From: Haplodiscus bocki | Lineage: Eukaryota | Length of the DNA: 64,000 bases | Reading direction: 5' to 3' | Assembly: GCA_965655095.1 (NCBI GenBank) | Contig: OZ296659.1 | Coordinates: 63,736,001 to 63,800,000, forward strand | Part shown: piece by piece, positions 8,340 to 54,500 of the stretch | Numbering within the stretch: the stretch's first letter is position 1 | Layout of the letters: every line of letters begins with the position of its first letter | Made by a program: the position numbers and the translations under genes | Notes under the pieces: generated by a model | The model's database searches: none | What the model was told of the DNA's origin: nothing | Seen by the model: the letters and a program-made list of their open reading frames with translations, nothing else

Positions 8340-8776
8340 TTGGGTTATTTATTGTTCAAATCCGTGTGCAGCGGGAGAATGCCAACAAAAGAGAAATCCC
8401 CCCAAGGGGAGCAACGCCTTGTTGAATGTCAGAGGAAATGTGGAAAGTGGACTGTCGTGTGGATCCCGAAAAGTCTCCTAAGAGATCATTTATTTGCGGG
8501 TTTTGTTCATATGAGCAACTCGCAAAACTAGAACAAAGACTAAAAGACCTGGAAGAGAACCGTTCCACAGCTTGCCAAGCAGCTACCAAAGATATAGAAA
8601 CAAGACTAACTGCATGGGAAGATAATCAGCATACTGAGAAAAATTTTGTCCCGAGAGAAACACAAACTGCATCTAAACCAACCTACGCCGACATACTAAC
8701 AGGGATAAAATTAGAAGAAAAATTCCAAAAAGACATAGAAAGAAATATAATTAACTCAGGAATAAATGTTCACTGA
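8340..8776 (+). pseudogene. LINE ORF1 remnant with PHD-finger-like Cys cluster and coiled coil
   Basis: Across frames: CSNPC...C...VECQRKCGKW...C.VDP...SFICGFC, then the heptad-like EQLAKLEQRLKDLEE and PTYADIL, a motif typical of LINE ORF1. Confidence 0.6.
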
Positions 8777-9051
8777 GAGAAGAACGACTATTTTTTCGAT
8801 TCTCAAGGATCTGGAAGTAAGTAGTAAAACCGAATCAACCACTAGAATCGGAAAAGTTAACGCATCGAAAACACAACTCATTCAGGTCAGGCTGAAAGAT
8901 ACAGCCTGAACTAACACCCCAATAGGGGCAACAAAGCTATGAGCTGAGACAAATCCTGCGAAAACCTTCTGAAGCACCGGAATTAATTCACTTCATTAAG
9001 CATAACAGAGTCGTCTCACAGCAACGCAAAGGTGACAAATGACTACAACGC

Positions 9052-11683: not shown

Positions 11684-12384
11684 GGCCATTGCGTACCAAA
11701 AATCAATCGAGAACCAGAAACAAAGTTATACAATAACAGAATGCATTGTGACAAATCGGACTCTAGCTTGTGAATTTGCCATATATAGCTCGCTTTTGTT
11801 CATTTTATTTTTTATTTATTTCTCTGGAATATGTGATGAAGCATTTGTGATCACTATTATCACCATTTTCCCTTATATTCCATTTGTCAAAGATTGACGT
11901 TGAATTCAATGTTTCAATTTGTGGCCCAATCAGATTGAAATGTAACTTCACAGCGCGCTTCTTTCTTGCAATACATGTATATCTATCACGTGTATCCGTT
12001 TTGAGTCACCTAAAGACCAAATGAGAACGAAATTGAACGAAAATGCAAAAACAAGATTGTCAAAGTTTAACTGAGGCATTGATTGATGTCAATTTCTATT
12101 TAACTTTTAGAACTGCAGATGAAACAAAACGTCCGTTTGACCAATTCATTAGCGCTAAAAAAACCTACAAACATACAGGGTACGTTGAAGTATAATTAAT
12201 GTTTCATGAAAATCTTCAAGAAACTCGAAGTTTGTATTGTTTTCAAAAAAGTTTTTCATGACGTCTGCTGAATTGACTAATTACTATTCGGAGTCCAATA
12301 TTAACAACATCAATTTATATTTGACCTAAAAAAATAAATTGATAAGAATTGAAACTAGAAATGGACATCACTAATTTAACAGAG

Positions 12385-12755
12385 GCGAAGCTGTGCTTTG
12401 CAACACTTGCGCTAACGGCAAACTAGCGAACAAATCGACTAAATGTAACTGATTTTTGAAAGGTTTACGATACTATTGATAACAAGTGTACAGAAACGGA
12501 GTCAATTTTCTAAAGTTCACATACAAGTGAGAAATGCTATAATATTTCATTCGCTTGATATTTTAAAATAGAAAACTGATTCTCAAAGGGTAATTTCAGT
12601 TAGTAGAGCATGCAGTTCCGGCGCGAAAGGTCCAGGTTCGAGGGGAAACTACCCCTCTCTTCGGTCAAAATCTAAGAAATTGTGCGAGTTCAGAACGGTT
12701 CGTAAAAAAAGAAAACTAAAGCCTGCGATATAACACTTTCTTGAGCAAGTGTAAT
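12385..12755 (-). mobile_element. Non-autonomous Helentron-type (HINE/DINE-1-like) element, copy A
   Basis: Plus-strand left end: hairpin GCGAAGC-TGT-GCTTTGC (12385-12401), then ACACTTGC (12403-12410). Right end: ACACTTTCT-TG-AGCAAGTGT (12733-12752). This is a subterminal inverted repeat pair, a local inverted repeat and a terminal hairpin. Confidence 0.6.
12588..12655 (+). other. tRNA-like (Pol III A/B box) segment inside HINE copy A
   Basis: TAATTTCAGTTAGTAGAGC resembles a D-arm/A box. GGTTCGA at 12635-12641 is a B box. No convincing full cloverleaf. Confidence 0.5.
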
Positions 12756-16923: not shown

Positions 16924-17298
16924 TCATACTAAATGAGGGCTATCCAGACATGCATTTCCAGCTACCACGCCTCCGTCTAGTTTGGATTGATGTTTTGATC
17001 TAAGCAGATGGCCAGCTTCCTCATTCATAATGATCTCTCCATCCGAGTCTGATAGAACAAGGCCATACACGCCCAGCTCAACGACCACATTGCTGACGGC
17101 AACATTTGTATCAGTAGTTTTGTAATTGCAGCAGCTGATCAAATTCTCTGTACTTGTACTGTACACTCTCTCCATCAGCACATAAGCTTGTCTCTCTTCA
17201 GTATCCCGAAGTTGTTCTAGTTTCTTCACCATTTCTGCTTCAAAGTAGTTGTGTCCGCCACCCTCTAACTGTGGCTTGAGAACATACCTTGCAGGGTT
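16924..17298 (-). CDS. GSS: GSS coding exon 5 (terminal, ATP-grasp G-loop and A-loop)
   Basis: Acceptor TTTCAG ends at 17299. Encodes NPARYVLKPQLEGGGHNYF...YVLMERV...ELGVYG...GHLLRSK...DGGVVAGNACLDSPHLV and the TGA stop. Confidence 0.93.
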   Translation of the reverse strand, partial: NPARYVLKPQLEGGGHNYFEAEMVKKLEQLRDTEERQAYVLMERVYSTSTENLISCCNYKTTDTNVAVSNVVVELGVYGLVLSDSDGEIIMNEEAGHLLRSKHQSKLDGGVVAGNACLDSPHLV

Positions 17299-20200
17299 CT
17301 GAAAACATCAAATACCAGTACGAGATGACCCAAACAAACCATAAATGTCATATCTGCAGCGCTCTCAAAAAACGTTACGAAACAAAAGTATTTTCAATAG
17401 GGTCCAAATTTCATGCGCAAAGTCTAGGAAATATTTTGAATTGGCGCTTTTTATTTGAAAACTGGACCATTACCATATCCCAACTTTTGGGTATATTCGA
17501 CTATTTCTGGAGACTTCAAAAAATATAGGAAACCAATCGGTTGTTTTTATCCAGCTATGGATCTCTCAACTTTCAGCTGCATTAGTATTTTGAGAAACAA
17601 ACGCCTGAGTGGTGACCGGAGTAAAACTTCCAACTTTGAAAGCACGATTACTTCGCTACATATTCGAGCTCAGATCAGTATCAGGTAAAGTATAGCATAA
17701 TACATTGATGCGAAGCTGTGCTTCGCAACACTTGAGCCAACGGAATACTACTGAGCAAAACGAACAAGTATGATTAATGAAGGGGCCACGGTATTGGAAA
17801 ACTACGGACTAATCAATTAAGCAGAATAGAAACTGAGTTAATTCTTGAACAAATTTATTATAAACCTAAAAACAAGTGTAACAAGTACAACAGCTGAAGC
17901 AGTTAATTCGCTACATTAAATTTAAAAAGCGTGCAGGCTGGAAAAAGGGCTACGTGATTAAATTTTTGCAACAGAGCGAGAGCGCACGCACAACATCTAG
18001 GCAACATTAGAATCTTGGCACAAATGGGAGTTGTAAACGGATCGGGAAAAAGAAGCCTGTCATATAACACTTGCTTGCACAAGTGTAATAAATACCGAGG
18101 CGAAGCCGAATCTTCGTAAAACACGCCGATCAGAAAAAACGACATGAGATCAAGAACTTTTAATCTTGCGTAAAACAAAGTATTAAATTATTCAGATCAG
18201 TTGCCCAGTTTTCTCCGCTATGCCGACAATTCCTTATTCTATCGGGAGTGGTCTCTTATTGAACTTCATTTCTGAATGGCCACTGCCTTTGTGATTGGCT
18301 ACAGTGTCCAGTCTAGCACAAGCAATAAGGTTGGTGGCTAGTACGATTACTAAAACTATCAGAAAAAAAATAGTTTTTGGGAATAAAAACTTCCAACACT
18401 GTCCCCTAAAACTCTGCTCGCAGGTAGAAAATTCTACAAATTACAACCTTTTATCCCAAAAAATGCTTCAAAACGTTCCCCCGGACATAAAAAATTGCTA
18501 ATCGAAAGTTTCTGCATTCCTTTCATGGGTTTTCCCCCATGAAAATCGAACAATGTCTTCGAAGTCAAAGTTTTCTCAAAATGTAAATCTTGATTGCACC
18601 AACAATTTCACATTAAGAAGTGCCAGGAGTGAAATACTTGGACACTTTTCTAAAATATGAAATCCTGTTAGTTTTCAGAAAAACGGACATACACATATGT
18701 GAACATATTACATACCGGAATGAATTACTAATACGTTTTACTAATGGAATCAACTTTACAAATGTCGTATTTTAACTATAAATGAAGATTAATTCCTAAA
18801 GAATTTTGATGAAAGAATCTTAGCCTTGCAATTTTTTATAATATAATTTTGATGAAAGAATCTTAGCCTTGCAATTTTTTATAATATAATTTTGATGAAA
18901 GAATCTTAGCCTTGCAATTTTTTATAATATAATTTTGATGAAAGAATCTTAGCCTTGCAATTTTTTATAATATACACATGAAACGCCACTACATCTAAAC
19001 ACCACTGTTTTTAACGCTGTTCCGGTGAAACCACTGTGTATAAAAGATGGTTAAAGACTCAATTGGAAGCATTGGGAGGTAGGTATATTGGAAAATCCAA
19101 AACTTCAGAAACATTTTGATATCGGAAAAACCAGTCAAATTGCTTTTAGGTGTTTTATGTATTCGAATCGTATTCATCTCATCTTGGTAAACAAGGATGT
19201 CAACACCTGCTTGAGCAGGCCCAAAACAACCGATTGCAAGCTGTCTAAGGTATCAGAGATGATTCATCGGTTATTTTTGTCATTCCCAAGGAAATTCAAC
19301 AAGTGCAGATCTTACCAGGATTTTGTTGTTAAAAGGTCTGGCTCGACACCCCGGTGTCCATCAACCTCCAATTAGCTTCTTTTGCGAACAACATGTTTGA
19401 AGCTTCGTTAGGAGCAGGTGGCGTACCACTAATTTTAACAACAAGTTTGCAAAAAGAAAATGTCCGAAAAGAGGTTTCTTTTTCAAGTGAGTTTCAGATT
19501 TACTGCCTTCACAACCGTACATGATCTCATCTCGGTACCTGCCATACCCACAAACTTGATTTGTCAATCATGTTTTTTTCCACCCTAATGTTCAAGAAAT
19601 GCGCATACTTTAAAAGACGAAAACAACCTCTACTTGCCAAATGTCCCGGGAAAAATTCGTTTCTGACAATATTAGAACGGTAGGCTTCGTGATGGCGTCC
19701 CAAAACTGCTAGTTCTGACCGAGAAAAAAATTTCGCTAACCGTATTGAACAGGAACTGGAATTTCATTAGGGCAGTTGCAATAAACTAATTTGATCATGG
19801 CATCAATTTGTAAATTAAGAAGAGTACGCATCAAAAAGTCGTCCTGATAGGACTCATTAAACGTGAAAATAAAATTTATTTTTTTTTGATATCTTTCAGA
19901 TTTCAAGGAAAGTTGACCGTAAAAGTTATGTGGTATCTCCAGCGCATTATAACGCTTTTGTTTGTAGAAAATCGGGCTTTCTTTAGAAATTTGAAAAGTA
20001 ATGCTAAGATGCGAAGACAATTTTTGACGCGTATTATATAATCTTGATTGCTTGTGCTTGCATCGAGCTTTTAAAGCACTGTAGTCGAGCGAACAAGCGG
20101 GTGACTCCGTGCAATGTCGAGATGCCCAAAAAAACAGTGCTTCGGTAAATTTAAAACACGTGCTGCTGCAAGGTCATGAAAATAGACTCAGAAGTTCCCG

Positions 20201-32200: not shown

Positions 32201-35200
32201 TACTTCAGTGCATGGGCTACAATCTTCTTTTGCTGAGTGAAACAAGCCGGGAATAGGCCCAAATCCGAGCTGCAAGTAAGGCACGAAATATAAATGAGGG
32301 GGATGTTGTTTTATTTCGAAAACGATGAGTTTAGCGACAAAAATATGATATAATAAAAGATGATAAATACTGTTACGATATGTATTGCCTAGGGAACAGA
32401 CATTACAGATAATTGCCATTGAAAGAGAAAGTCATATATAAGGGGAGTGGGTATATGTTTGTGGGAAGGTCCGAAAATGTTCCTATATAGGAGAACTATA
32501 TGCACGTTTTCTATACTGTCTGCACTTGGTACGAGTAGTATATGACCGTCCTCAATGCCCATTCTTTTTGGAGGGCACGAAATCGGCTTCAATTTCGTCG
32601 AATACACGGTGAACAAAAAGCTAGCAAGAAAGCTTTACTTAATTGTAAAGCGCCGACTAAAAACCCACCATGCACTACTCTAGTTCATATCTCTTCCAAG
32701 CTATTTAAATTCTCATTTTTTTCTTGATGGGCAAGTAAACAAAATGAACAAATTGCTTGAGATGATTTCAAGTTCATTACAATAGTTTAAAGGTCAGGAA
32801 ATTCGGAGTTCGATTTCATGTTCATCAGTCCTCAACTAAGTATTTTGTTTAAATACATGACACTCATTGTGCTCTCCAACAATGATTGGCAGCTTTTAAA
32901 ATTTCCATTCCATGGTGCTAGATACTACACTTTTAAGGAACATTGGTGGTTCTCATCGCAAAGTGACGTAACGGTTGATCTCAAATTCGTTGTATGTCAT
33001 TACGTAGTCAACGTCCCAGAAAAATTCGAGGCAAATGCATCTATCTCCAGTAGAAAAAGGAAAGATTTTTATTGAGCGTAGTAGAAAGGAAAATGTATAA
33101 CCTTTTACTTGTGATGCTTTGCTGCAGTTTCAACTGATCGAATAAATTAGATTCGTCAGCGTCCACAACAAAAACAATACACTTGCTAGGCGAAGCCGCC
33201 GGCATTTCATGATCCGCAGCAGGAGCGTGTGTAAAGTTGCTGCCGTTAATGGTTTGAGGTGCTTCGTTTCCATTTGCCTCGCGTTTCGGCGAAAGATGGC
33301 AGCAATAGAATTTGAAGGCTTCTATGAAAGCATAAGACAGTTTGCATAGACAATTGTTCACTTTCGGCATGTGAATCGTCTTCAAACTGTTGTTGTTCAC
33401 GCCACTCCCTCTCACTCGATATGTTTCGGCAAAGTAGTTGGCCACATTTCTAAAATTAACTTCCCCAGTCAGTCACATTTTAAGTGCTAAGCATTCTCAA
33501 CAACTTTTCGATTTTTCAAAACGTTGCCGAAGTCATGAGTATACTACCACCGGAATACCATCCCGTACTTTTAAGTTGAGCTGGTACTCCCAATCGTAAT
33601 GGATGGAAATTTTGTTAATGGATGGTCAAAACTTCAGACTGCGTCAAAACTGAACACACATCTCACCGTTCTCCTGAAACACTCATCTTTGAAGCTAGTT
33701 GTTTTTTTTGAAAAATTGAGGCGAAAACTCTTTTGCATAAGACCGAGGTAACTTTTTACTAGACAATTGATGGCTTGCCAAAAACTGGCAACTAATACTC
33801 GACATCATTTTCATCTTGAAACTGATAAACCGATTGCAATTGAACAAAACTGACAAGATATGTTAACTGAAAAATGGATATCAGTTGAATCAATCTACGA
33901 CCTGAGAGGCTTTCGAGAAAGCCCTCGATTTAAGAAACAATGGGTATTTAAGGAGCAAAGTATAGTGAACGGTGAGGAATTGTGACACTTCATTTCTAGA
34001 CCATCACTTTCAGGACTTCGAACAAAATCTGGAAAAAATATTCCCGATGAAGCAAGTTACATCAAAAAACTCGTCCATTCAGTCGTGAAGGAAAAGAATT
34101 GAGTGAGTAATTCGGGAGGAGAAGCATTTAGAACAGTGACAAAATAAGGCGTGGCAATGCTTGGACCAGTTTCTTTATTAATTAAATCAAAATCTGAGAA
34201 AACTGCTCCAGTCAAAAGAAATTCCATTTCAAAAGCGGTCAATTAGGCCGTGGAAAAAGAAGTGCGTGATTATATTTAGAGGGAGATAATTTGAACAATT
34301 GGCATCGAATGCATTGTGGCAAGGTTTGAACCATAACTTTTTGGGAAATGGGACAGAATCTCGAATAAACTGATCCATTTGGGCGAACTTACGAATAAAC
34401 AGCGGTCGATTGGCCCATGATACAAAACAATTGAGTGGGCAGTTCCAGAGAAGCATTTGAAAATTGGACTGAAATTGAAGTCATTTGCTTGTGTAGGAAT
34501 ATTTGGACTACGATTTTTAGAAAGGGAAACAATGCATTTAAAAATATTGCAGTTAAAAAACTTGCTTTAAAAAAGCTAACTATTAAGGTGTAAAGGAAGT
34601 AAAATTGAACGGTAATTTTAGAAAAGAAGGCATTTGGAAATTTCAGCAAAATCGACATCATTTTCGTTTGTGGCAAAATGTGGACCATTTTTTACAAATT
34701 GCAAGAAAACCCTGTAAAATTCTTCCAGTGAAATGAAATTATAATCAAAAAAAAGCAAACGAATACGCCGTAAAAGAATCGATTGAATTGAGCGCGCAGT
34801 TTTAGAGAAGGCAATCGGAATGTTGACTAAAATCAGCAAGAATCATTTCTGACAAATTTCAGCCATAACTTGCGGAATATGGAAGAAAATCTAGTGACAC
34901 TGCTCGACTTGCATCAATCTTAATATTCTAAACTAACCATTCAGTCATGAATGAAAAGAGTGTGATAGTTTAAGAGAAAAAACATTTGCAGAATTAAATA
35001 AACTAGAAATCATATCCATGTGCAGGAATATTTCGATCCTTTTTTTAAAAAAACTGGAACAAAACCCGAAAAAATGTTAAATTAAACAAATTTGCATTTG
35101 ATAGGCTGTCAATGAAGTCATAAATGGAGAGAATAGAGTGGGCAGTTCAAGAGAAAAAGCACTTGCAAAATGACAAAAATACCTATTATATTCTTTTGCA

Positions 35201-36444
35201 GCAATGTTTGGGCCAAGTTTTCCAGAAAACAAAAAAATTCTCGAAAAATTGCTCCGCTTAAATCAGTCTAGACATAATAAAGTTTCCATTAAGCGTTACA
35301 TACAAGGAACTGAAGGAACAATTCAAGAGAAAAATAACTTTTGAAATGTACTAAAAGCACCATTTTAGGCATTTTCTGTCACTTTTGGACCATCATAAGT
35401 AGACAATAAAACAAAACGCGAAAATCATCCCGGCTTAATCTTTTCTATATATTGCTAGCTCTCACGAGAACGTTGGTTGAAAACGAGAAAATGAAAGAAT
35501 TTCGAGACAAATGATTTTCTAAATTTTGAGGTACACGAAACTAAACTATAACATATTTATACTTTACTATACATGTTTTAATTTCTCGGATTTTTTTCCC
35601 TCGGCGGTAGAAACAGTTTGTTGACACAAGACTTCTTTATTTAAACCACCGACCTCATTCAGATTTAACCTGCTTCCAATTTTTGTCTATTTTCGTCGTA
35701 CGGGTGGACGAAATTCGACATAACTTCCCTGGGAAAATCAGGGTGTCATGCCCATAGTTGTGTCATGCACATAGTTGTTCCTGCTTGTCATAAAAGTAGT
35801 TCAAACGGTACTTTTCATTCGTTTACCGGAAACCTGAACAAGAACTCTGATCGAAAATCTTCTATCAACATAGCCTTTTTTGCTGCCCCCAAGGGAACAT
35901 AGAATCGCAGAACTAACTTGTGCAAATCGGCGGTAGCTTCGGCGAGACCAGCAAAGCTGCATGCAATAGTGTTGACTTCAATCTGTCGTGATATGTAGTT
36001 GCCACTAATAGTGCCATCCGCGGAGCCATTTTCCTGCCTTTCGAACATGTAATCAGCACGAAATATGCCGAACTGTGCATTATGTAAATTGTTTCTCATT
36101 TCGCGTTTGTCCAATATGTCCAGCAGATTGGCGCAGAACTCATCACCTTGTTTGCAGGATTCCAAACATTTTTTAATGAACTTTATGTTCAAAGATATTT
36201 TATGATACAGACGGTTGAAGGCCGTTTGTAGCTTTTTCAATTCGTAAAAATGGTCCCTAGGCACAGCTGAAGGAAACAATGTTGTCGGCGATGGGACCAT
36301 CTGACCTCTGATCCAGAAAAACAAACCATTAGATGTTTTCGATAAATTCGCAATTTTACATGCTTTCAACAAGTCAGCATCAACGGTGGCGGAAATGACA
36401 GCCGGAATAAAGAAACAAACTTCCTCCTGAGCTTCTTTTGTCAT
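16924..36444 (-). CDS. GSS: Eukaryotic glutathione synthetase, spliced gene model (5 coding exons, 1716 nt, 571 aa)
   Basis: Exons 36444-35834, 33449-33102, 27644-27494, 21288-21058 and 17298-16924 join in frame through GT..AG introns of phase 2,2,0,0. GSS motifs occur in the expected order: RADYM, QIEVNTIACSFAGL, ESNLFDQ, FYFRTGY, CPSVSHQLAGMKKFQQ, YVLKPQLEGGGHN, YVLMER, ELGVYG, GHLLRSK, DGGVVAG..LDSP. Confidence 0.93.
17709..18089 (-). mobile_element. Non-autonomous Helentron-type element, copy B (GSS intron 4)
   Basis: Perfect hairpin TGCGAAGC-TGT-GCTTCGCA (17709-17727), then ACACTTG (17728-17734). Right end ACACTTG-CTTGCA-CAAGTGT (18067-18086). Same termini and similar length as copy A. 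Confidence 0.65.
18802..18973. repeat. Perfect minisatellite, 4 x 43 bp
   Basis: Unit aattttgatgaaagaatcttagccttgcaattttttataatat starts at 18802, 18845, 18888 and 18931. Confidence 0.97.
21058..21288 (-). CDS. GSS: GSS coding exon 4
   Basis: Acceptor TGTCAG ends at 21289. Encodes DWKLREDIDCCLALSCPSVSHQLAGMKKFQQILAQDGMLETF...AINAALQ. Donor CAG|GTTCTC at 21057, phase 0. Confidence 0.92.
25700..25772 (-). repeat. tRNA-derived SINE-like head
   Basis: Minus-strand A box TGGCCTAGTGG (25764-25754) and a degenerate B box AGATTCGGACC (25720-25710) at tRNA-like spacing. Confidence 0.5.
27494..27644 (-). CDS. GSS: GSS coding exon 3
   Basis: Acceptor TTTCAG ends at 27645. Encodes GITVCRKTFEQL...EVAIFYFRTGYVPSSY. 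Donor GTTAGT at 27493, phase 0. Confidence 0.9.
29053..29110 (-). repeat. Partial third copy of the same hairpin-ended family
   Basis: CGAAGC-TGC-GCTTCG, then ACACTAG and atcgactaactgat, similar to copy A. The other end was not found. Confidence 0.45.
33102..33449 (-). CDS. GSS: GSS coding exon 2
   Basis: Acceptor TTTTAG ends at 33450. Encodes VNN..AFIEAFKFY and IVFVVDADESNLFDQ (GSS ERNxFDQ motif). Donor AG|GTTATA at 33101, phase 2. Confidence 0.87.
34433..35490. repeat. Old diverged tandem array, unit ~175 bp, about 6 units (GSS intron 1)
   Basis: GAGTGGGCAGTT(C/T)..GAGAA-like anchors at 34433, 34607, 34790, 34958, 35136 and 35312 (spacings 174, 183, 168, 178, 176). Confidence 0.65.
35834..36444 (-). 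CDS. GSS: GSS coding exon 1
   Basis: ORF 35815..36444 contains PTTLFPS, DEF, FRADYM and QIEVNTIACSFAGL. The donor AG|GTTTCC at 35833 (phase 2) matches the next acceptor. Confidence 0.9.
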
Positions 36445-37545
36445 GTATACGCAACAATATGCTCTGAAAAAACATCAGAAAACAAAATACGCAAGAGCAC
36501 TTTCAATAAAAACCTTCCAGAAACTATTTTTTCATGTGAATGTCGAAGCATGCTCCTTTGGGTGGCTGTAAACAAAAACAAGTATGTGAAAGACTGAAGT
36601 TTCTTTATGCCAATGCCAGATTAAGATTCTTTCTGAGGAACTGCATCCAAGACAGAGGAATGAAGCTTGAAAAAAGCTAAAAAAATCACCAGATGGATCT
36701 CCCTTTCCAAGTTTCTTCTACAGAAAACCTAATCGAAAAAGTTTCTGATCTCAACCTGCTTTCCGTAGGCCATATATTAGGGTTTCGTTGTTGAGCCCAC
36801 ACATTATGTGAGCAACTTGATCACTTAGGTTCCTGCATACAGCAGGTACTAAATTAATTTGTGCGCTTAAAACGATTTAGGTTTCAGCTAACTCAGCGAA
36901 AGCTGAGTTAAGTTTTAGATACGAACACTAGAAAAATTGTCCTGTTGCTTTGTTGAAGTCAAAAAATTTTGATCACAGCATGAAACTTCCTTAGCTATCT
37001 GACGATTTCTCTGCTTTTCACAGAAAAGTTACGACAAGACCCTAGTCTGTCAAAACTATAATGTGGTTGCTGTCCAGTTTTACGATGGTTATTCAGCAGA
37101 AAAACGATTGAAAATCGGGCGATTATTGACTTTTTGAAAACCCCCATTATTTTTAAAAGCTTCAACTTTTTGGTGTGAAGGCTCCTAGAGCAAAAAATTC
37201 GACTAGGTATTGAGTTGAATACAAACCGTGTTGTATGCAAATTAATATTCCCAGTCGATAATTTAAAAAGGTGACCGTGCATATCGGTACGTTAAGCAAC
37301 TTATATATGACTTGCAGAGACGTAAGCTAAGCTCGAAAGGTGTGAGATCTGCGAGGGGGCAGAAGTCCTGGAAATACGAAAGGAACAACTACGTCATAAA
37401 GAAGAGTTCAGGCCGTTGATTAGCTGCATGCTGTACACCTCCTAGTGCCATTAAACGGTCTCCTTGTTTATGCAGAACCAAAGGAGGGCAAGAACTTACT
37501 GCATCAAATGATATTCTACAATGCTATAATTCACAAATTTGCCCT

Positions 37546-38281: not shown

Positions 38282-38481
38282 NNNNNNNNNNNNNNNNNNN
38301 NNNNNNNNNNNNNNNNNNNNNNNNNNNNNNNNNNNNNNNNNNNNNNNNNNNNNNNNNNNNNNNNNNNNNNNNNNNNNNNNNNNNNNNNNNNNNNNNNNNN
38401 NNNNNNNNNNNNNNNNNNNNNNNNNNNNNNNNNNNNNNNNNNNNNNNNNNNNNNNNNNNNNNNNNNNNNNNNNNNNNNNNN
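38282..38481. other. Assembly gap (200 N)
   Basis: Run of exactly 200 n, suggesting a fixed-size scaffolding gap. Confidence 0.99.
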
Positions 38482-41400: not shown

Positions 41401-44400
41401 CACTGCAACCTTTCCAATGAAGAGAAAAAAACTGAGAGAGTTGATTGAACAAACACCGAGTTTCACGAAAAAACATATTTCCAAAGTTTTTCGATAGACA
41501 CCTTGATGGAAGTCTGCAAGCCTTTGGCCTTTGGTTTCTGAGAATTATCAGTTTCAACAAAGAGAGACCAACAGATATGTTCGGGCATTTCCCCTTTTAT
41601 CGCTTTAGTAAGAATCCTTTCTTGGGAGCAAATAAGAGATTGTTTACTCTACCTCTATGATAAAACTAATTGTGCATGTGTCAAATCAGACATATATGGA
41701 AGTTTTCAAGGCCGTATTTCTTAAGAAGGATGACACGGAAAGACGAATTTCTCAACAAGCAGCAATTTTTCCCTTAATTTGTCTCTTTGGGATTTCGATA
41801 TAAATGCTAAGAACACGAGATGATTGACCAAAACGATTGATAAGACTTGAAGTAGATCAAAATTTGACGCTAAAATAAGCACCAGATATTAAGGAAAATT
41901 GGGTTTATATCGAAGTCCGGCGGGCCTGAAAGTGGATTGTTGAACTTCTGCTCTATCAGTATTTCACTGCTGGGAGGAAAATCAAATATTTCCCAATCGG
42001 CAGTTCTCTTGCATGTAGAAAACTTCAAAGTGGTACGTTGGAGCATGAAAAAGTCGAGTTCTAGGGAAAAAATTGGACTGAATTTTAGAAAAAATGAGAC
42101 ATCAGAGAAGTTGAGCATATTTTGGCAAGTTTGAGCCAATATTGTTGAACTTCGAAAAACAATTTTGTTGTTTGTTCTGAGCAAACCATCATGTACAGTG
42201 AAAAACCAGCTGATTGAGACTTTGGAGAACAACACATATCCTCATGTTGTCTAGGATTCGAAAAAAAGAAGCCTTTCCGGGCCGAAATGCACTGTTGATG
42301 TAGTTTCGCGAACGGAAAGAAATCAATTAGTATTCGTATGCAACAACTTGAGTCGAAAACGAAAAGAGTCAAATAAACACCTTGAAACAAGGAATCATGT
42401 CAATAGATTCGAAAAATATTGAGATTGAGGAACTAAAATATGTCAAGACTAACAGCACTTCGTGGTGTAATTGAGTTTTTAAACTTCAAACGTATTAAAA
42501 AAACACTTGAAACCAAAGGGCCCCGGAAAGCAAAAAACTGGTCTACTCTGACCTCGAAGGAAGAAATTGATCTTGTATTCATTGAGCAGAAACTAGCGAT
42601 TTTGAGATAAAAACCAAGATAATCAAAAACATGAAACAATTTTGCGATTTTTGAAGCAACTAGACAACCAAAGCATAGAACCATACTGAACACGCCTCCA
42701 AAAAAATGTTCTTTTTTGAGGTGATCGGAGCAAGGCAACTTGTGCTCAAGAAGCTAGTACTTGAAAACTGGGCATTGCCAGAAAGAAGTGCACTTTCTCG
42801 CGTTCACTGTGTATCACGAATTAATTAACTGCGAAGCCAAAACTCAAGGGCTTTCAGTTTCAATAACCATATCAGAGTAAAACTTTCCACAAGTGACCGT
42901 GATCTTAAATTAGATGACTGCTCTTATGAAGAAAGAAGAGTTTGAGTAGGGAGATAAATCAACAATATTAGAAGTTTGAGGAACTGTGGAACTTTTAAGC
43001 TAGCAGAATTTCGACGCAAGAAAGGAACTTGATGATTTTTCATTCTCCTAATTGAGTATTCCATCATTTGAAGAGTTGAATCATTTAATCGGAGACGTTG
43101 ATGGGAGAAACCGACACCGTAATTGTGGAGGATTAGCTTTTCCAAAATCGATGTATCTCAAATCTGATAATAATTTATGGCATTTTCGGGCCATCACATC
43201 TCCAACCAAAGGCCAAAACAAAAAAATGTCGTTCTAAATAGCCCCCTTAAATACAAGTTTGTTACTTGAGACCTTGATGAAAGACATCTAGATCGTAAGT
43301 GCTGGAAAATATGAGTTCGAAAATTGGGATGAGTCAAATAAAAACCCTTTCTTTGCATTTTTGGATTTTTAGGATGTCTACACGGGGTGCGGATTTGATG
43401 AACCGTTTAAATTGAACATTCTTTTTCGCGAGAAAATTTTTCGATGGAGTCCTCGACGGAAGAAATCAGACACCTAGGTAGTGAAAAGGTTTGGTTTTAG
43501 ATATCTACATAGGCCAAGTGAACTCAATACTTTTGCATGCTGGGATTGTCGGGATTCTAAATTGAGACAAGAAATCTTTTGAATTTCATTCTCTTATACC
43601 AATGTAAGTAGATATCCAGAGGTTACGGCGCTGATGGGAGAAATAAGATTAGTAACTGTGGTCAAACAAAAGTTCGAATATCGATATATGCAGAGTCTCA
43701 TGACATTTATCGACATTCTTCGGCTAACACAATATCAATGTGAAAAAAATGTCGAATAAGTTTTAACCCAAAAATCCTTCACATATAAAACTTTGTTGAT
43801 TGTGACTTTGATTGGAATAATTTGGGTGTAGTTTTTGGGGAACAAAGGAATGAATATCGGTTAATGTCCAATCTGATATTTCTTTTCGGCAGTTTAGCCT
43901 TATCTAAATTCCCACTCCAGTCCGCTTCAAAGAACCCAATCCATGAGTTAGAATTTTACATTTCCAGTTCAAGTAAAAAACTATCGTGCGAAAGCCCTGA
44001 TGAAGGAAATCGAGCCTGTCGTTGTTTGAAAAAACGAGTTGAGCTTTTGATTAATGTTTTGTTTGCAAGGTACCGGGCTTCGAACACCAAGAACCAATTC
44101 AGTATTTTTTAAAGCGAACAGATCACCTATTTTGGAGTGCTGTCGATTAAAACGTAAATGAAGGTTTTGAACTCTGTTTTTTGCAGTTTCAATATTCAGG
44201 CCAATTTATGCAAATTACACTTTTTGGTAAATACCCTTCCCTCAATGTGGAGATCAAAAACCGGTGTGTTGCAGAATAAAATAGCAAGAAGATTTGCATA
44301 TGATAGCGCTAGAAAAACCAGGATAGCGAAAAAATGCTAAAACCCAGAAATGAAAGTACATCCAGAAAAATAAGTTTTAACATTTATATGCACTAATTTA

Positions 44401-47400
44401 TCAACCCTTTTCAGTCTTTTTAGAAAGTTGTATGAAATTTTCCTCGTAATGTTTCGAAACAAACAGACAAACAACGAGTTGCTACGGTTTCTTAGTAAAC
44501 AGACTTCTTCGGAGAAAAAAGAGCCCAATTATCAGAAAACACTGAAGTTTGTCATAAAGAACATTGATTTGCAATTACCTAAAAAATGATGTAAACAAGT
44601 ACCTGAAAACATTTTTAAAAAACAGCTGATGAAGAGACTTCAACCTGCTACCTTGGTTACTTAAGCCCGGAGCCTCCCACTTGTCTGATATACAAGCTGC
44701 AAACGATTCTGCCTCACTAGGAGGTGTTGAAGTTTGCGCGTCATGGGCAGCTTCAAAACAAATGTTACAAGAAGAAGAGAGCTCGAGAAACGGATCAAAA
44801 TTTCTATTTCGGAAGTTCTTTTAAACGAAAATAATCAAAGCATCAACCCTGTATTTGTAACAATCTAGCTGGAAATGTCAGATTGGTGGCAGCGGAAAAG
44901 GAACTGGAGTAAAACAGCTTGAAATAGAATTCAATTGATAAGGAAAAGTCTACAGGCTAACTGAGAACCTACACGGTATAAAAAAAAACTCAACACGAAT
45001 TCTTGGGTGGTAAATTGCGCTGCGTTGTATTCTTGAAGGCATGTGATAAGAATCATAAGGAAAGTGTTGGGCTTAAGTTCTATACAATATTTTTTCAAAC
45101 TAGATCAGCTAGAGTATGACAAATGTAGTCTTTGAAATATGAGTTCACCTAAACAGACAACGGAAATTCTTACAAACTAAAACCATAAAAGTAACAACTC
45201 AAAATACAAAGTAGTTGGCTGCCGTCATATTTCTAGAAAAAAACTAATGAGACTTAACTAAATGTCTCCAGCAGTTTCCACTTTGTTACAAACTTGCTGC
45301 CAAAAAGAAAAATTTACGGAACAGGCCCACAAAAAAAAAGAAAAAAGTGAACAATGAACAATCACTGTCACCAAAAAATTGTTCAAGTTGCGACAATATG
45401 AGAGATCACGCGGAAGAAAAACAAAGACAAAAACAAGTGTTCTCTGACAAAATCCTTCACTAAAGCCGACTTTAGCATTAAGTTGCTCCTGTTCCTCAGT
45501 TTTGGCTCCAAAGAATGTCTTCCTGCGGGGTCTGGTTATCGTTAGAAATTATATTTCAGAATAAAAAGTTTCGTCAAATGAGAATTCTAATGTAAAACTT
45601 TGTAAATATTTAAATATTTAGAAACAACTTTCTACACATCCAGGCTAAAAAGTTATTCACAGAGAATGCTATTAACAGATTCCGGAAAATCATCAATTCT
45701 AAATGCAAAACGTTGACATTTAAGTGACCTGGGAGATTCCGTCGCACGTTCAGGCAACAGAGTTTTCGAAGGAGAGCTGTGCTTGTATTCCTCTAATCGA
45801 ACATGATGGTGTATCCTGCTGATCCTCCCATCTCCATATCGTTGAAAGCTGATGGCGAAAAGGAGTAGCTATCCTTGGTCTGGACACAAACTCCAACTCC
45901 AACTGAGAAAAATCCCAGAAGAAATCCATGTCATCCATGTCCGATAACTAATAGCCGCTGGTATCCATTTCCTACAAACCAGCAATAGAAACAAACCATT
46001 TTTATGATTTCAAACGTTCCTTGTTTGTCGGCAGTCATTGGGATTTGGACCAAATGATTGCCCAAAACTTTTCGTCATCGGCAAAAAATCATTTTCTAAG
46101 TTGAAAGAGGTTAATGATTGGCCATATTTTTAAACTTTGACGCAATCTATTTCTGACAAAAATGATGGAACTGGATCAAAACGTAAAATTAACTAGGTTC
46201 TTTTTTCGGAAACAGAGAAGATCCTGCTGCTGGAATTTAAAATGGAAATCTACGAAGCAAAATAAAAACTCGATTTACAGCTCAGTCGGTCAATAGATGG
46301 AAGTTCAGAACCTATGTGCCAAAAATGGTTTCTTTGGTATTTCGGGTTTCAGTTCGTTTGTGGCAGATTGTCATTGGCCGAGAAATGGCATGCAAAAACA
46401 TGAGTTTCTTCTGTGTAGACGCGGTAAGTCTTTTTATCGATACAAAAGTGCTTTCTTCACCCAAAAAAGCCATTTTCTGCATTTGTTCCTCAGAGGGAAT
46501 ACTAAACACAAGACAGCTGCCTTTGCTTTTTGCAGTCATTCAAAATGTATTCAGAGTCTTCATTGGTTGAAAGGTAATACACCTGTCGCTAATACAAAAT
46601 GGTAAACACGCGTCCTTCGTTATTTTTTCCACCTTGTTGCCCACACACACACTGAACATCTTCTTAGTTTTAATCTCGCTGATTGGTTTGAACTATTTTC
46701 GAAGAGTTTGTGGCAGGTCACTTTTCCATTTTTTAGAGCAAAAGAACTGTCTATTTTTCGTGTTAACCAAGAATGAAAAATTCAACTTCCATAGAGTGAT
46801 CTCGGTGCATTTATAGGAACGCCAGGGAAATCACAGTCTCTTTTGCTGCAGTTTTCGTTGAAACGAAACATGCCATCAAATAATTTTCTTGTAATGAGCT
46901 TTTTAGATGTCATTGTTTTTTGAACAAAATGCATAGTTGTAACCAACAAAAAGTGGTTACCGGAGAAACTGTAACTTTTTCAGTGGCTGTGCTTGAAGAT
47001 TACTGCAAGAAAGACCGAAGGAGTCACGGTGAATACCGAAGTTTTCGATGGACGAGACACACTTGTTTCTCTGCGAAGAACGATAAAAATGAATGTTATT
47101 ATTGCATTTCGCTGTTGAATTGTTCATCAGTGTTTTTTCAACCGTGAGCAGAGAAGCTGCTTTTTGTTTTTGTCAGGCCAAGTTTATTTATGGGTTTCGG
47201 CAGAGGAAGCAATGAGAGTTTCCTCCCTGAAGCAAAATTCTACTACCGATCCAAGAATAAATAGTTACAATTACCAGTTTTAACAGTTGAACGAGGTTTT
47301 GCCAAAACAAGGCAAGAAACATTACAAAACTCCCAAAGAAGCCCATGAGCTTGACCAAGAGGAGTCGAATGGCAACTTAATTGCAACTATTTTTAGAATG

Positions 47401-47859
47401 TAATCTGTAGGAGTTTTCCAATTCGTAAAAACGTTGCACCGGACTTTTTATTCTTAGTGACTGACTAAAAGGCGGTTGTAGGAAAGCACTTACTGAGTCT
47501 CTCGGTACAATTGTTGATGGCAATTATGTTTTCGTTCCAGCCACGAAAGTTTGAGATGATCAGATAATCAATATACATTGAATAAATCAACTGAATCAGC
47601 AGTTTTTGAATTTTCAATGAAACACAGTCTAATAACTTGATCGAAATTCACCCGCAGCCGATTTTTTTAGGGAAAATGTGAAACCTGGGTGATTTTGAAG
47701 GCGAATTGAATCAGTTGATTCAAGAGTTTCATCTTCAGATAAAAGATACACCAATAAGTTTCACAAACAGAACTCAAGAGTAAACTCACCCTCGAACACT
47801 CAATTCTTATTGACCCTTGTCGCGTGAACCATCCCTCACGTCATGAATAGTTAGAAGGA

Positions 47860-50330
47860 ACTTCTCCATTTTAAAACGCAATTCATGGATGAAATTAACG
47901 CCGGGATTGACAACTTTGATGCAATGATAGCTGCTCTACGAAGAACAGTTGCTCACTTCACACAACCGGGTTTGAAACTTTCTGCACACAACGGGGACTT
48001 TGACACGACAAAAAAGGACCGATCAGGTAGCAAAATTATACCTACTGGAATCTCTCCAAAAATTGCAAAAACTGAAAAGTTTCAGCTACAAGTTGGAATG
48101 CTTAACATTTTGAAGCAAATGCAACGCGTGATTGACTTTGTACAAATTCTTCGAAAATTTGTTTTCAATCTCGAACGAAAATCAATTCCATTTTGGCGTT
48201 TGTTGCAAGGAGAGAAAGCATTGAAATTCTTTATTGAATATCATAAATTTCTAAGCAGTTTGAAGACTGTTCTGACACGTGATACTATCTTGACAATACG
48301 TTTAGCAAAACCAGGCCCTCAATATTGCATCTCCTGTGATTCTTGTTTTCATGTCAGTTCCTTTGTGCTAAGAGGTAAAGATAACCTGATTGATTAGGAT
48401 GGAGTAAAACAGAAAGCCCTACGCAGCAAGTTTTTTTGGTTCAAGATTCTCCACTGCCACCCAATTGACTTTTCGGTGTGTTAATACAAAGAATTCCTAG
48501 CATTTTGATTTCCGGAAGACTGCCATTCTTACCTCAAATGGTGCACAGCGAAGCGAGTCCTAAGTTGAGCAGAGAACTGAACACTGACACAATTTTTTCA
48601 GTCAGAAAGTATTCATTCATTTTTTCATATTGCCTAGACTGAGTTTTTTTCAACAATTCGCTTGCTAACTTTCCTAGCAGAGCAAACTGGGCGGCATGTC
48701 TTTATTCATTCACGCATACGGATTCTAGTTTGAGTAATGTGAGCGCACAGATAAAGCTCGCGGATCATATGCCTAGACGTGAGATTGAAATTGGAACAGA
48801 AACAAAACCACCGGATTTATATTTGTTAAACATCGTTGAAGCAACTCAACTCTCTGATGACTTACTTAAGGCTGTTGACGAACAATCCGTTAACCAGCCA
48901 GAAACTCATGGTTTTTAAGACCACCTTCTAGCAGAAACACTTTTTGATGGAACAAATCTTCCTAGTACGGGCTCTTTCTCCTTGACACAAGTCCGGCTAG
49001 TCAACATGTTTGCAACCAATGATTTTCAAGACGTCTCGAGTGATATACGTAAAAGATTACAAACTTTTAACTTAATGCAACACCAACAAAATGATGAAGT
49101 TTTTCGTGAAACAAAATGGCGGGAAATTAGGCCATCTCATACTCAACCTCCAAGTTTTCTCAGCGGTTTGCAAGAACATTGGAAGCGTTTCATTTGCTTA
49201 GCAGTTGAAGATGATAATCTGTATCGTCTTTTCTACGATAATTTTGCAAAATGAAGTACAAGCAAATTTAGGGACCAAAAAACCTTTCTCGAGAATTATT
49301 AATCCGTCCATTCAATTCAACAACTGCATCGCTAAAACCATTGAGGAAATTCGCGGACGGTTTTGCTTTTCTGAATTTACGGATTTTTTCTTTTCTGCAA
49401 TTAGAAATTGCCTGACTTGCCTACAATATAAAAGCGCTCCGTCAAAAAACTTGAGAACGCCATTTTGACCAGTTTTATCCCTTGCTTCTTATCCTGGTAA
49501 AACACATGAAATTGACTTGGTTGGACTATTGAAGTCACCAGTTTACCGTTATGCGTTGACAGATTTTGATGTATTTAGAGAATACTGGTTTGCGGTCCTT
49601 TGGAAGAACGTCAGAGCAGACACGATTGCGCCTGCACTGACGTCAAAATTTTCTTCACATATATGTTTGCCCTAAACCATTTTGCTTAATCTGGGTAATA
49701 CTTTTGTTTCTGAATTGATAGATGGATTAAAGACTTTACCCGAAATTCAAACAGAACGTGCTAGTCTAAAACAACAACAAACGGTGACAGTTTCCTGGAG
49801 CTCTCATGGCACGCTTAAACGCATTCTTAAGTTGAATACATATCAACAGTGGACCGGTATGATTAATCAAGTGCAAATAGCTTCCTTCATTCATATAAGG
49901 TCCCATTATTCGGCATATGGTTGTAGCTCTAGATTTCTTTTTCAAGGAAACGAACCACTCAAACTTTTCGAACTACGACTTACTAACACTCTGATTCAAC
50001 GTTTTTTTCTGAATGCTGAAAACGTCTCTGCAATACAACAGGCAATGAACAATGAGCTCGGGGTAACGAATTTTAAATTGACTGGAATGCAAGACGGGTA
50101 CCGCGCTAATTACCATTGCAAAGCCAAATTCAAGTCGTTGGCTTTCTTCGCTCGTTGTCTTTTACTTAATGGTTAACTGGTCCCTCAATCTGGTTTCGCA
50201 AGTACATTGTTACCAATTGGGCTTTCATCATACAAAATGGCAAGAATTTTGACCAATTCCAACTGTATTATTCAGAAATTGTGAAATAATTGCACCTAAA
50301 AGGTCCATGGCATCAGATTGATATCTGTGG
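47860..50330 (+). pseudogene. Ty3/Gypsy pol remnant
   Basis: RT: QFMDEI (decayed YxDD), GLKLS, GISP. RNase H: ISCDS, YKEFLA, LTQFFQS. Integrase: AKTIEEIR.RF.F...IRNCLTCLQ (zinc-finger CxxC), EIDLVG, LG.TFVSEL, SHGTLKRIL, YHSAxGCS-like. Confidence 0.88.
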
Positions 50331-51056
50331 CTCCACCAAAGTTAAGTGTTGAACCGACGATTTTTTAATGAAATCCTTCTTCCCTAGTTAAAACGGCCAC
50401 CAAAATGGTTGATCAGCCACTTGTAACTGTTGGTTTCTGATTTCCAGTCGCTCCAGCACCGGTAACAATTGGACTAACAGGCCTCCCAGTTCCGTTGGTG
50501 TTGTCTGAACAAGTCAAAAAAGAATAGGCAAATCCACCATTGTCAAGACGACCTCTTCCTTCTATACATTTATAATCCCTTTACTGACAGTTGTGAAAAT
50601 CCTTTGCCTAGTGACTCCATGAAAATGCTAACCAGCTATCAAGAGCTTCTCGTGGAATCGACAAGGCCGAGCAAAGTCTACCAGCAAAAGCAATACCTGC
50701 TGACCGGCAACCTCAAACCCGCCTTTTTCATAACAACCTACATCAAATTAATATTTCTGAATTTCGTGTTGAGCAGTATGAAACTCTCCCGCAAATGCAG
50801 TTGGTTTTGAGTATTTTTAGTGGTTCAACTAGAGACCAATATGACAAATGCCAAACCAATTATCAGTCACAAAAACGGAATCTTGCATAACTTAAACAGT
50901 CTCTCACAGGAGACACATGTATTGCTACTCCTGTTTCTAGTTCACAAATTTTCAGTCATCCTTAACAGCAACAGAGGTAACCTGACAAATTAAAGAGGCA
51001 AAAATTCAAACCTCGCTACACTTTCAAAAAATTTAAGATTTGTTTATCATCATTCA

Positions 51057-51526
51057 ATGATGTATATACAGTCTTCATTACGAATATGCATCCAAAAAAT
51101 CACCCATCTGTCCATTATTTTAACAGCTGCAAGATTTGCAAGATTTATAGCACACTGCGTTGCCTTTGTTTTTGTCATAGGCAAAAATTTAACATCACTG
51201 ATAGCGTGCTGCTATTCCAAGCTCCTAGAAATGCGAGAAAAATCATGAAATTTTTAACCAGGCTCCTTGATAAAAGATTGTGATCAACCTAACGGTCGAC
51301 TTATCTATAATTAGTGACAAAACGTCGATATTTCCACAAAAATACCTACAAAACACTAGAAATGAACCTACAAGCGTTAAAACAACAATTACCACACCAT
51401 AAATTTTGAAAGAGAGCCAATCCTAATTTTGATTGTGGCTATGATCAGCCGACAGGTTTTTCGATTTTTTCAAAAGTTTTTTCGGTCTCTAGTTTAACTG
51501 TAACAATATTTCAGGCTACGCGCTAG
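51057..51526 (+). pseudogene. TARG1/OARD1-like macrodomain (ADP-ribosylhydrolase fold), frameshifted
   Basis: Manual translation: IAHCVAFVFVIGKNL...*PGSLIKDCDQPNGRLIYN / LVTKRRYFHKNTYKTLEMNLQALKQQL..*..NPNFDCGYDQ...FSIFSKVFSVSSLTVTIFQATR*. This is collinear with human TARG1 LAHCIS..MGAGIA / [30 protein letters not shown] / MPRIGCGLDRL / VFEATDIKITVY. Confidence 0.85.
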
Positions 51527-54500
51527 CGTAGGAAGCATTTTAGCAGGCGACAGTCTTCTCAGATAGCACTTACACTTTTTTTGAGAAAGAGTGCAACAAA
51601 AGATAAACAGTGTCTTTATTCTCGAAGTTGACCTTTCAATCACACTTTTTTAAGGTCATGAAAGACAAGCGACCCTTGTTATTGCGACCACGCAGCTCAT
51701 TCTACCACCACAATAAATCTAAGCAGGTTTCATCGAAACCTAAGGCAAAAAGTTTTTTGTCTACGGGACGGCCTTTGCTTTTGATCCAACTGACGAAACT
51801 CAAATTTTTACCCCTATTTTCCGCACGACATGTTGATCCGTGTTTCACTAGGTCTCTCAGCATTTCTTGTTAAACTTTCTCGAATTGGCAAAATCGCTGA
51901 TATCGAAAATAAGAATAAGTGAAGTTTTTTTTAACGGAGTTATCAGACGGAAGACTGAATGATTGCGATCGAGTTTTTTAAAAGTGTTTTGGCTCATCGC
52001 CAATATGGCCTCGCATTCCTGGGTCCAGGCTGCTTCAATGCACCTGGCACCTGATATGACTCGTCTCTACTGTACACTTTGCATTTCGTTAGCAAAACAG
52101 ACAAAGAGAGCACAACTGGCTGTCAAATCAGACCTTTCGATTAGTAATTTCATTTTTGGTTACACTGGTACAAACTGTACCTGTCAGAATGGATGCTTTG
52201 CTTAAAGAGAAAACCCAATTGCCATCACTTATACGTAGACTGGGGTTCCTCGTTCAACCACATCCTGAGGCCTACCTCCAGTAAACCAGAATCTCTTATC
52301 CCAAGTAATTTGCTGTTTCCAACATCCATAACAACGATTACCCAGTCTTCCATTTTCTGAGGAACAGTTTTTGCTAAAAGTGGTTTCATTCACTGAGGGC
52401 TCTGAGACCTGTATATTCGTATCCAGACATGCCTGCAGTTCCTACGCGTTCATAGAGTATCTGATTGTTGTTTCACACGGTTCAGTAAATTATGGCGTTT
52501 TCAATATTTTTCATAACCCTGTCTGCAATTTTCGCAAGTTACTGGCTGATTTTTCTTGTCTTTTACCTTACTACATTGTTTCAATTCCACTCCTAGGTTG
52601 CTTGATTAACTAGATACCCACCTCGTTCCTTTTTTGTACAAAAACTATAAATCGTTGCAAACTAGCATTGCCCTCTTCCTTCTGTAAGAGTGCTGGTTTT
52701 AAAGTCACCTCTTCTGACTGTCCAAAGCGTTCTAGTTTTACCTCATCATTGTTATCTGGCAAGCTTAACCGACATCCTTAAATTCCGCACATTGCCTATT
52801 TTTCCCATTTTGGCACACGAGTAACCTGTTCATTTGAGCTGCCTTCGTGATACGTCCAAAAGCATTCTAAACAATAGCACAAGAACATAAAATTCTCTTT
52901 TCCCAAATGAACTTCCAGTGAAAAACAACTTTTGATCATGCTAGGCACTACTTAGTGGCGCTCCGTAAGCCTCCAGTAAGCCATGAGAGCAAAAAATTTT
53001 CGTTTGTTAATGTCTAGCCAACTTCTCGGAGGCCATTGTTAATCCGTCCCTCGTCATTTAGAACAAGCAGCCACTCCAGATACTATATTCCACTTTCTAG
53101 TAAGAATTTTTGTAATCTTTTGGCCCTTAGTTTTTCCTCTCCCTTCTCCATAAAGTTTTTTTTGTCCACCGCTGTTTTATCCAGTTTTTTTACAAATGCA
53201 TCAGAAAGATGACTTTCCACTTTTGTCTGAAACATTCGAAACAGTTTTATTACCTCCTTTTCGATTTTTTTCCGTCCGACAGTTCCATTCGACCTACTAA
53301 GAAATGTTGAACTTTTGCTCTGCACCTCGTTATTTCTACTCATCAAAGACTTTTGCCGTTTGCAACAAACTTACGGCAATCTTTCACTTTGTCCACTTTT
53401 TTTGTTTTAAGTAACGGATTCGTGTAAAGGCTCCATCTGCCAAAGCACTTTTCTCTCACTTACTTTTCCTTCAAATGTCTATTTCAGTTCCTTTCGTCAT
53501 AATTGTTCCGCCCGCCAATTAAAGTGATCAATTTGAGTTCTCGAAGTGTTTACATGGACAGCAATGCACAACGACACAGCATATCATGTACTTCGCCGTA
53601 AATATGATCCTGAAGGCATTTTAACAAACAAGGGCACTCGCCAATGGTGAAGCCCCCAATTTTTCATATTGTGAAAGCCAGATGTTATAACTTAACCACC
53701 CTTGTCCATTCGAGCGTTTTCCACATGCCAAAATCTCATGGACTTTGGGGAATCATCAACGTCAAGAATTATGAAAATTTTGACAAACATTTTCAAAAAT
53801 AAAGACGTATTTGTGTTTCCTTAAAAAATTAACATAAGAATTTTCTGATCTAGCCATGTTTAATCTCGATCTTGTCGGTAAAGTTTAATATAAAGTAGGA
53901 CATCTTCATTTTTGAACTCAGTGCATCAACCTAGACTTGTTCCGAGAGAAATGTCCAGAACTAACCAAAGTCACTTTACAGTCTGCATGTACTCCTCCTT
54001 AGATTCTTTCTCGATGCGTTGCTGTGGAAATTAAGTTTATATTAAGTTAATGATGATTAGGACGCGGCCCCCTCGAGATATTTGTTTGTTTTTGAACTTC
54101 CTGTATTAGCCTTTACCATTTATTGTTTTTATTGGCTGAAGACTGTTTTGCTTGAAAAAATCCAACTAAACAAAAAGACTTCAAAACAGGAAACTTCAAT
54201 CCACCTTAAAACTCTAATTTACAAAAGTATACCCGCAAACTAGTACTGAGCATCCTTAACAACAAAAGCACACAAATCCAAACTCTTTAAAAACCCAACA
54301 AACCGAAGAGTTTCACCTTTAGTTCACATTCAAACTGTTCATGACATTTTCTGTTCCACTGCTATACCTCGCCGCGTTCCCAATCACAACTTTCTGACGA
54401 AATGGTAGACACAATAGGCAATTATGTAGTACAGGTAGCAGGCAAATCAAAAATACTGATATTTAAAGTCTGCTTGCCGGTCATTTCAATTCATACACTT

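Follow-up and report, generated by a model that had tools for sequence, protein, structure and literature searches.

A TARG1/OARD1-class macrodomain as the last Pol domain of a Ty3/Gypsy-type retrotransposon family with a decayed copy in Haplodiscus bocki

The closest described enzyme to the domain reported here is human TARG1/OARD1 (C6orf130), an ALC1-like macrodomain hydrolase in which Lys84 and Asp125 have catalytic roles (PMC9411070, in the part available). TARG1 reverses thymidine-linked ADP-ribose modification of DNA in a Lys84-dependent manner, as shown with the bacterial toxin DarT (available text of PMC8501950), and its removal of ADP-ribose from nucleic-acid termini is covered in the accessible part of PMC7050489. 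The antitoxin DarG of the DarTG system shares the fold class and the catalytic lysine, and viral macrodomains, including those of alphavirus nsP3, share the macro fold and a place within a protease-processed polyprotein; a counter-defence role has been proposed for the viral domains in the excerpts available. Among reverse-transcribing LTR elements, epsilon-like fish endogenous retroviruses sometimes carry macro domain ORFs (available portion of PMC4977317, citing Basta et al. 2009), and chromoviruses such as MAGGY, as described in the accessible literature, have an extra host-derived domain at the C-terminus of Pol, past the integrase.

In the window, a 64,000-nt stretch of H. bocki DNA, positions 51092-51526 hold a TARG1/OARD1-class macrodomain that is decayed but retains both catalytic residues; it closes a dead copy of a Ty3/Gypsy-type family from which internal sequence has been lost. 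Human TARG1 is the best match of the domain in sequence and fold and shares its Lys/Asp dyad, but is encoded by a free-standing host gene, whereas the element domain forms the end of a retrotransposon Pol and is a predicted hydrolase. The DarG family model NF048014 matches in its macro part only and not over its full length, scoring 28-57 bits where the cut-off is 250; DarG lacks the aspartate of the dyad (PMC9411070, same part), which the element domain has, and acts with a toxin partner, of which there is none with the element domain. The fish elements are Retroviridae with additional ORFs whose macro class is not given in the available text, whereas here a TARG1-class domain is fused to a Ty3/Gypsy Pol. 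Chromoviruses carry a methyl-lysine reader, in contrast to the enzyme-type macrodomain, long linker and candidate cleavage site of this family, and Pfam detected no chromodomain in P0001, P0002, P0003 or P0009 (P numbers denote the natural proteins compared). Alphavirus domains match more weakly, the closer viral folds being arthropod-virus proteins with UniProt names that give no function.

That macrodomains had already been noted in other retroelements, as the original prediction cautioned, is correct for the fish endogenous retroviruses, and the macrodomain in LTR elements is to this extent known; the family-wide, Pol-terminal TARG1-class domain is real and is a new variant. No description of a TARG1-class domain in a Ty3/Gypsy Pol was found in the literature searched, which included few subscription journals and no Repbase entries and was available in part. 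A survey of chromatin domains (10.1101/2021.11.30.470311) lists transposon fusions of Chromo and PHD domains, with no Macro fusion in the available main text, and its supplementary fusion table may bear on the question. Because precomputed Pfam labels include the Gypsy-plus-Macro architecture of P0016, prior notice at the database level is likely. The Pfam Macro model placed the domain of P0002 below its cut-off and missed those of P0009, P0017 and P0022, so that the domain is overlooked by routine annotation.

The following features were recognised at the locus, all on the plus strand:

47306..47753, plus strand, decayed protease-to-RT region of a Ty3/Gypsy-type pol (tblastn of P0009 residues 130-267, P0011 1-129 and P0007 1-26)
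47876..48616, plus strand, C-terminal part of RT, connection and start of RNase H, with 5 stops
48631..49287, plus strand, end of RNase H and RNase H-integrase linker, with 3 stops
49328..50335, plus strand, integrase zinc-binding domain, core and C-terminal part (Integrase_H2C2, E 0.035; relatives)
50336..51091, plus strand, Pro/Ser/Thr-rich linker, decayed and partly deleted, in the integrase frame
51062..51073, plus strand, decayed counterpart of a V-N-A-V-type motif just before the macrodomain, a putative protease site
51092..51526 (start approximate), plus strand, TARG1/OARD1-class macrodomain, last Pol domain, with 2 frame changes and 3 internal stops
51320..51322, plus strand, catalytic lysine codon (equivalent of TARG1 Lys84, by alignment to TARG1)
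51443..51445, plus strand, catalytic aspartate codon (equivalent of TARG1 Asp125, by alignment to TARG1)
51583..51593, plus strand, possible polypurine tract and start of a 3' LTR, a weak assignment without a partner LTR (9-base purine run, then TG)

The pol of the window is colinear with its relatives over 47306-50722, and its integrase is 55-59% identical to those of the closest ones. Most of the RT core is missing, residues 268-541 of P0009 having no counterpart between 47753 and 47876. Three frames of 46500-47900 gave no Pfam match, and upstream of 47306 a protease, gag and 5' LTR were not recognisable by tblastn of relatives or Pfam. At the other end, the purine run and TG lie 57 nt past the macrodomain stop, and neither a repeat finder nor a sensitive self-BLAST of the window revealed an LTR pair around this copy, so that the paired LTRs expected to bracket the macrodomain are not found here. 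As the copy is old and its 5' end is not recognisable, we class it as a decayed pol fragment of Ty3/Gypsy type and not as a complete element.

The peptide pieces quoted in the original prediction were recovered on the plus strand in three-frame translation, with revised boundaries. The domain, which had been started at 50840, begins at approximately 51092; a weak match at 50903-50941 (E 0.14-0.25), considered as its start, was taken as chance. Frameshift decay, proposed in general terms, is confirmed: the frame changes twice, once near 51100-51130 and again at about 51311, three in-frame stops interrupt the domain (51246, 51255 and 51407), and the domain ends with the stop at 51524-51526, close to the end point of its relatives. 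What had been read as a gap of about 0.8 kb before a separate gene is the decayed remnant of a coding linker that shares the frame of the integrase: P0021 aligns to it without gaps at 50372-50497, 50624-50722 and 50993-51097, each time in that frame.

Pfam assigned neither macrodomain piece of the window to any family, Macro included, and the N-terminal piece alone gave chance matches only (Numb) against the PDB. The C-terminal piece (51314-51526, with X at stops) gave five distinct PDB matches at E ≤ 10, all of them human TARG1/C6orf130 (best E 5.5e-4); a word search with this decayed piece yielded 10 candidates, none significant. A 144-column profile built from two natural relatives (A1) scored the two pieces at 51.9 and 27.3 bits, jointly covering columns 13-143, with no further match in six frames of the window or in a reversed control; the profile check suggested earlier thus failed with Pfam and succeeded with natural relatives.

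To the wider family, TARG1 was matched by profile at E 3e-30. The macrodomain of P0017, folded with an 80-row alignment, gave a model of very high confidence (pLDDT 96), and in a PDB fold search with this model TARG1 took ranks 1-8 (TM 0.84-0.90, rmsd 1.5-2.2), the best match having TM 0.90, rmsd 1.5 Å and 34% identity. DarG came next (TM 0.88-0.90, 18-20% identity), Poa1p structures ranked behind both (17-19% identity), and alphavirus macrodomains were weaker (TM 0.75-0.78, 14-18% identity). Together with the PDB match of the window piece, the profile and the predicted fold place the domain in the TARG1/DarG (ALC1-like) class with a Lys/Asp dyad, and the TARG1-class identity first proposed from the letters stands. 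We take TARG1 to be 152 aa long, and the Lys84/Asp125 numbering of window residues assumes this length. Equivalents of both residues, claimed at the outset for the window, are present in the alignment of the window with P0002, P0009, P0017 and P0039; in the 29 family rows the lysine is found in all 29 and the aspartate in 19, being changed in 2 and uncovered in 8. Such counts are inflated, the matches having been chosen with a profile that itself holds Lys and Asp; across all kept matches, host-type ones included, they are K in 145/145 and D in 136/145.

The place of Poa1p in this search is one of two points for a role unrelated to defence, in which the domain would clean up O-acetyl-ADP-ribose, ADP-ribose-1''-phosphate or the ADP-ribose that caps primer tRNA or genome RNA within the particle; the other is that TRPT1/KptA chemistry and ADP-ribosylation of RNA ends exist (PMC7050489, accessible part). 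The much closer TARG1 match (34% identity versus 17-19% for Poa1p) and the lack of a reason why such metabolites should limit only these lineages make this role very improbable.

The statement that RNA viruses use a macrodomain class different from that of TARG1 proved too general. The closest viral folds to the P0017 model include VP8 of Kadipiro virus (TM 0.89, 31% identity; a likeness of fold only), and predicted folds similar to TARG1, again by fold only, were seen in virga-, flavi- and negev-like virus proteins from thrips and other insects and in a Cressdnaviricota protein. Phage relatives of the macrodomain are only 26-36% identical, and phage macrodomains form the nearest Atlas clusters. 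A search of species genomes for close bacterial relatives gave 55 pattern matches, none of which was confirmed.

The architecture that is broken in the window is intact in natural relatives. An integrase search returned 13 proteins (39-59% identical), two of which, P0002 and P0009, read through integrase, linker and macrodomain in one frame. The other 11 stop within the integrase or the linker, before the macrodomain position, and thus neither confirm nor deny the fusion; no other C-terminal domain was seen in them (Pfam rescan on 4 of the 13). P0009 (1778 aa, 121 member sequences) carries protease, RT, RNase H, integrase and macrodomain, in the order found in Ty3/Gypsy elements, and has Ty3-G Gag-Pol as its best PDB match (E 7e-46). 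A whole-library search with a two-sequence profile matched 4977 proteins at E ≤ 0.001; among the best 150 of these 4977, 17 have Pol-like sequence outside the macrodomain. Additional families, in which a single ORF spans integrase C-terminus, linker and macrodomain, are represented by P0017 and P0039, and P0021, cut short at its end, carries a P0003-type linker on into the macrodomain. The Pol of the family reads protease-RT-RNase H-integrase-linker-macrodomain, and given the in-frame fusion in relatives and the linker remnants up to 51097 in the integrase frame, the macrodomain is the last Pol domain. Thus, the assignment of the macrodomain to the element family holds, whereas its placement as a separate third ORF in an env-like position does not, the domain being fused in frame to the Pol C-terminus in P0002, P0009, P0017 and P0039. 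In P0026, P0045 and P0154, an RT, pre-RT or integrase piece is joined straight to a macrodomain, which suggests internally deleted copies.

These fusions also bear on whether the domain is a passenger, that is, a processed OARD1 pseudogene or a neutral capture of a host gene beside or inside a dead element. A copy that is broken throughout and has no bracketing LTR pair would suit such an origin, but the domain in the window shares 50-55% identity with P0002, an element protein, compared with 34% between family members and TARG1, and several divergent families have the domain in the Pol frame and conserve it far better than the adjoining linker; we regard a passenger origin as exceedingly unlikely. 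Its processed-pseudogene form is refuted by the continuity of the domain with the Pol linker and its closeness to P0002, and the Pol fusions of the relatives, together with a well-supported clade of integrase-fused domains, agree with the initial view that this is no one-off OARD1 pseudogene.

Pairwise identity among P0002, P0009, P0017 and P0039 is 62-72% for the integrase parts, 35-57% for the macrodomain and 18-26% for the linker, a low-complexity stretch of 160-366 residues in the relatives. The macrodomain is far better conserved than the linker, as expected where selection acts on a domain and leaves the linker in front of it free to change, and on these protein-level comparisons the macrodomain appears to have stayed under selection across families during the divergence of the linker. 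Net charge was basic in all groups and uninformative on nucleic-acid substrates. A V-N-A-V-type motif lies no more than 16 residues before the macrodomain in 16 of 20 proteins (13 in its strict form), against 4 of 70 linker windows (strict form, none), counts that refer to a motif defined after inspection and to rows of which many are near-copies and 2 match only at the initial Met. A similar motif is found at all six RNase H/integrase junctions inspected. The text available of PMC3185560, PMC7828637 and PMC8402755 gives no Ty3 or foamy protease cleavage-site sequences, so that the cleavage reading rests on comparison within the family. This comparison is suggestive of release of the macrodomain by the element protease as a separate product of ~150 residues.

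If the domain instead stayed on the integrase, it could act as a reader that tethers integration to ADP-ribosylated chromatin or DNA breaks, much as a chromodomain would. It is found where the C-terminal chromodomain of Gypsy elements sits, and the MAGGY chromodomain targets H3K9me (10.1101/2021.11.30.470311, available text); the length of the low-complexity linker would suit a tether, and P0135 has a macrodomain at the same end position in another lineage. Speaking against a reader are the candidate cleavage motif right before the macrodomain, the retained catalytic dyad and the other elements that hold the macrodomain at sites not joined to the integrase C-terminus. On balance, we think a targeting role quite unlikely.

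The reading that we favour, tentatively and at a little under an even chance, is that the domain is a packaged ADP-ribosylhydrolase and frees replication intermediates of marks set by the host. The macrodomain would be produced at the stoichiometry of Pol and incorporated into the particle, where the aspartic protease of the element would cut it free at the V-N-A-V-type site, similar to that before the integrase. The free hydrolase might then strip mono-ADP-ribose from reverse transcription intermediates (RNA, single-stranded cDNA and DNA ends) or from acidic residues of element proteins. Such marks would be added by host transferases, and their erasure would let the element escape an ADP-ribosylation-based block. 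Against counter-defence stands the known PARP-family restrictor of retrotransposons, ZAP/PARP13, whose PARP-like domain is defective (PMC4982230, available part).

Other LTR elements carry the domain as well. Besides P0009, a region search on long proteins found P0016, a Gypsy-type Pol in which the macrodomain directly precedes the integrase zinc finger, and two DNA ligase III fusions. Domain contexts were obtained by running Pfam on 69 of the 150 matches, the longer ones, and the LTR-element contexts were as follows:

RNase H, then macrodomain: P0068, P0094, P0147, P0159 (Pfam and domain positions)
Macrodomain after the integrase zinc finger: P0084, P0098
Macrodomain after the SH3-type end of the integrase: P0135
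Macrodomain beside the protease: P0114, P0157

In P0114 and P0055, the macrodomain is at the position after the protease. A placement between protease and RT was considered for P0037, P0058 and P0062 and gained no support from BLAST. The Gypsy-type Pols P0094 and P0159 have two tandem macrodomains, one intact and one degenerate, which separate RNase H from the zinc finger of the integrase. Elsewhere, long linkers between RNase H and integrase may conceal macrodomains that have decayed.

Phylogenies were built from macrodomain alignments of only ~140 columns, without taxon labels. One tree was limited to 26 rows from proteins whose architecture is known, 16 of them element rows. It unites the six rows of the integrase-C-terminal group in a clade (98/93), and the joining of all 16 element macrodomains in one clade was rejected (p-AU 0.0056). 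A 48-row tree likewise rejected a single clade of all LTR-element macrodomains (p-AU 0.00027) and placed P0009 and P0018 apart from the other integrase-fused domains, a joint clade not being rejected (p-AU 0.40). A single origin of the LTR-element macrodomains is rejected. In a quick tree of 145 rows, from which 10 short-coverage rows were dropped, the integrase-fused group together with five unlabelled rows received SH-aLRT 92; the macrodomains of P0037, P0058, P0062, P0041 and P0052 lie near the integrase-fused group in this tree.

TARG1-class macrodomains also precede the BRCT domain in the DNA ligase III-type proteins P0014, P0015, P0122, P0145 and P0162, and are fused to NADAR, SLOG and uracil-DNA glycosylase (UDG) domains in P0105, P0112, P0074 and P0158. 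As the same domain class is fused to ligase III, a repair role would fit equally well, and the close rival to counter-defence is a helper that clears PARP1/2-type ADP-ribose from gapped integration intermediates or cDNA ends so that host repair can complete the insertion. The ligase III fusions presumably use the domain in this way, the position in P0016 directly before the integrase zinc finger would suit it, and TARG1 acts in the DNA damage response (PMC10933786, in the part available). Conflict with the host is the better fit for the post-protease position in P0114 and P0055 and for the presence of the domain in non-integrating RNA viruses and phages, and the ligase III macrodomains form a clade of their own (99/96), separate from the element domains. 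Most Ty3/Gypsy elements integrate without a macrodomain, which also counts against a repair helper; we consider it unlikely, though well within consideration.

Taking counter-defence as the preferred reading, a broader and more doubtful proposal, possible in our judgement but rather improbable, is that Ty3/Gypsy elements repeatedly captured predicted-intact TARG1/DarG-class hydrolases as packaged Pol products (after the protease, between RNase H and integrase, and after the integrase) because hosts ADP-ribosylate reverse transcription intermediates. The macrodomain would then be the antidote to an undescribed, DarT-like eukaryotic defence. If retrotransposons do retain this enzyme class and capture it again and again, their reverse transcription intermediates would be candidate natural targets of TARG1-class enzymes, the element macrodomains would be ready probes for the host transferase, and LTR retrotransposons would join RNA viruses and phages in the conflict between macrodomains and PARPs.

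The remainder of the window contains a second, better preserved RT-bearing element on the plus strand (8426-11505; RVT_1 at 10034-10678 and 10747-11505), which looks like a non-LTR retrotransposon and has an upstream ORF (9043-9510) that gives an endonuclease-like impression and has no Pfam match. Pieces resembling exons of eukaryotic glutathione synthetase are spread over ~20 kb of the minus strand at 16927-17307, 33044-33472 and 35818-36474 (Pfam E 1e-37, 0.005 and 1e-33, respectively). The assembly has a gap of 200 N at 38282-38481. Repeats comprise a perfect tandem array of four 43-nt units (18802-18974), an 82-nt duplication (6975-7142), a dispersed pair 5.3 kb apart (12382-12453 and 17707-17778) and a diverged 185-nt repeat (43096-43278 and 43629-43812).
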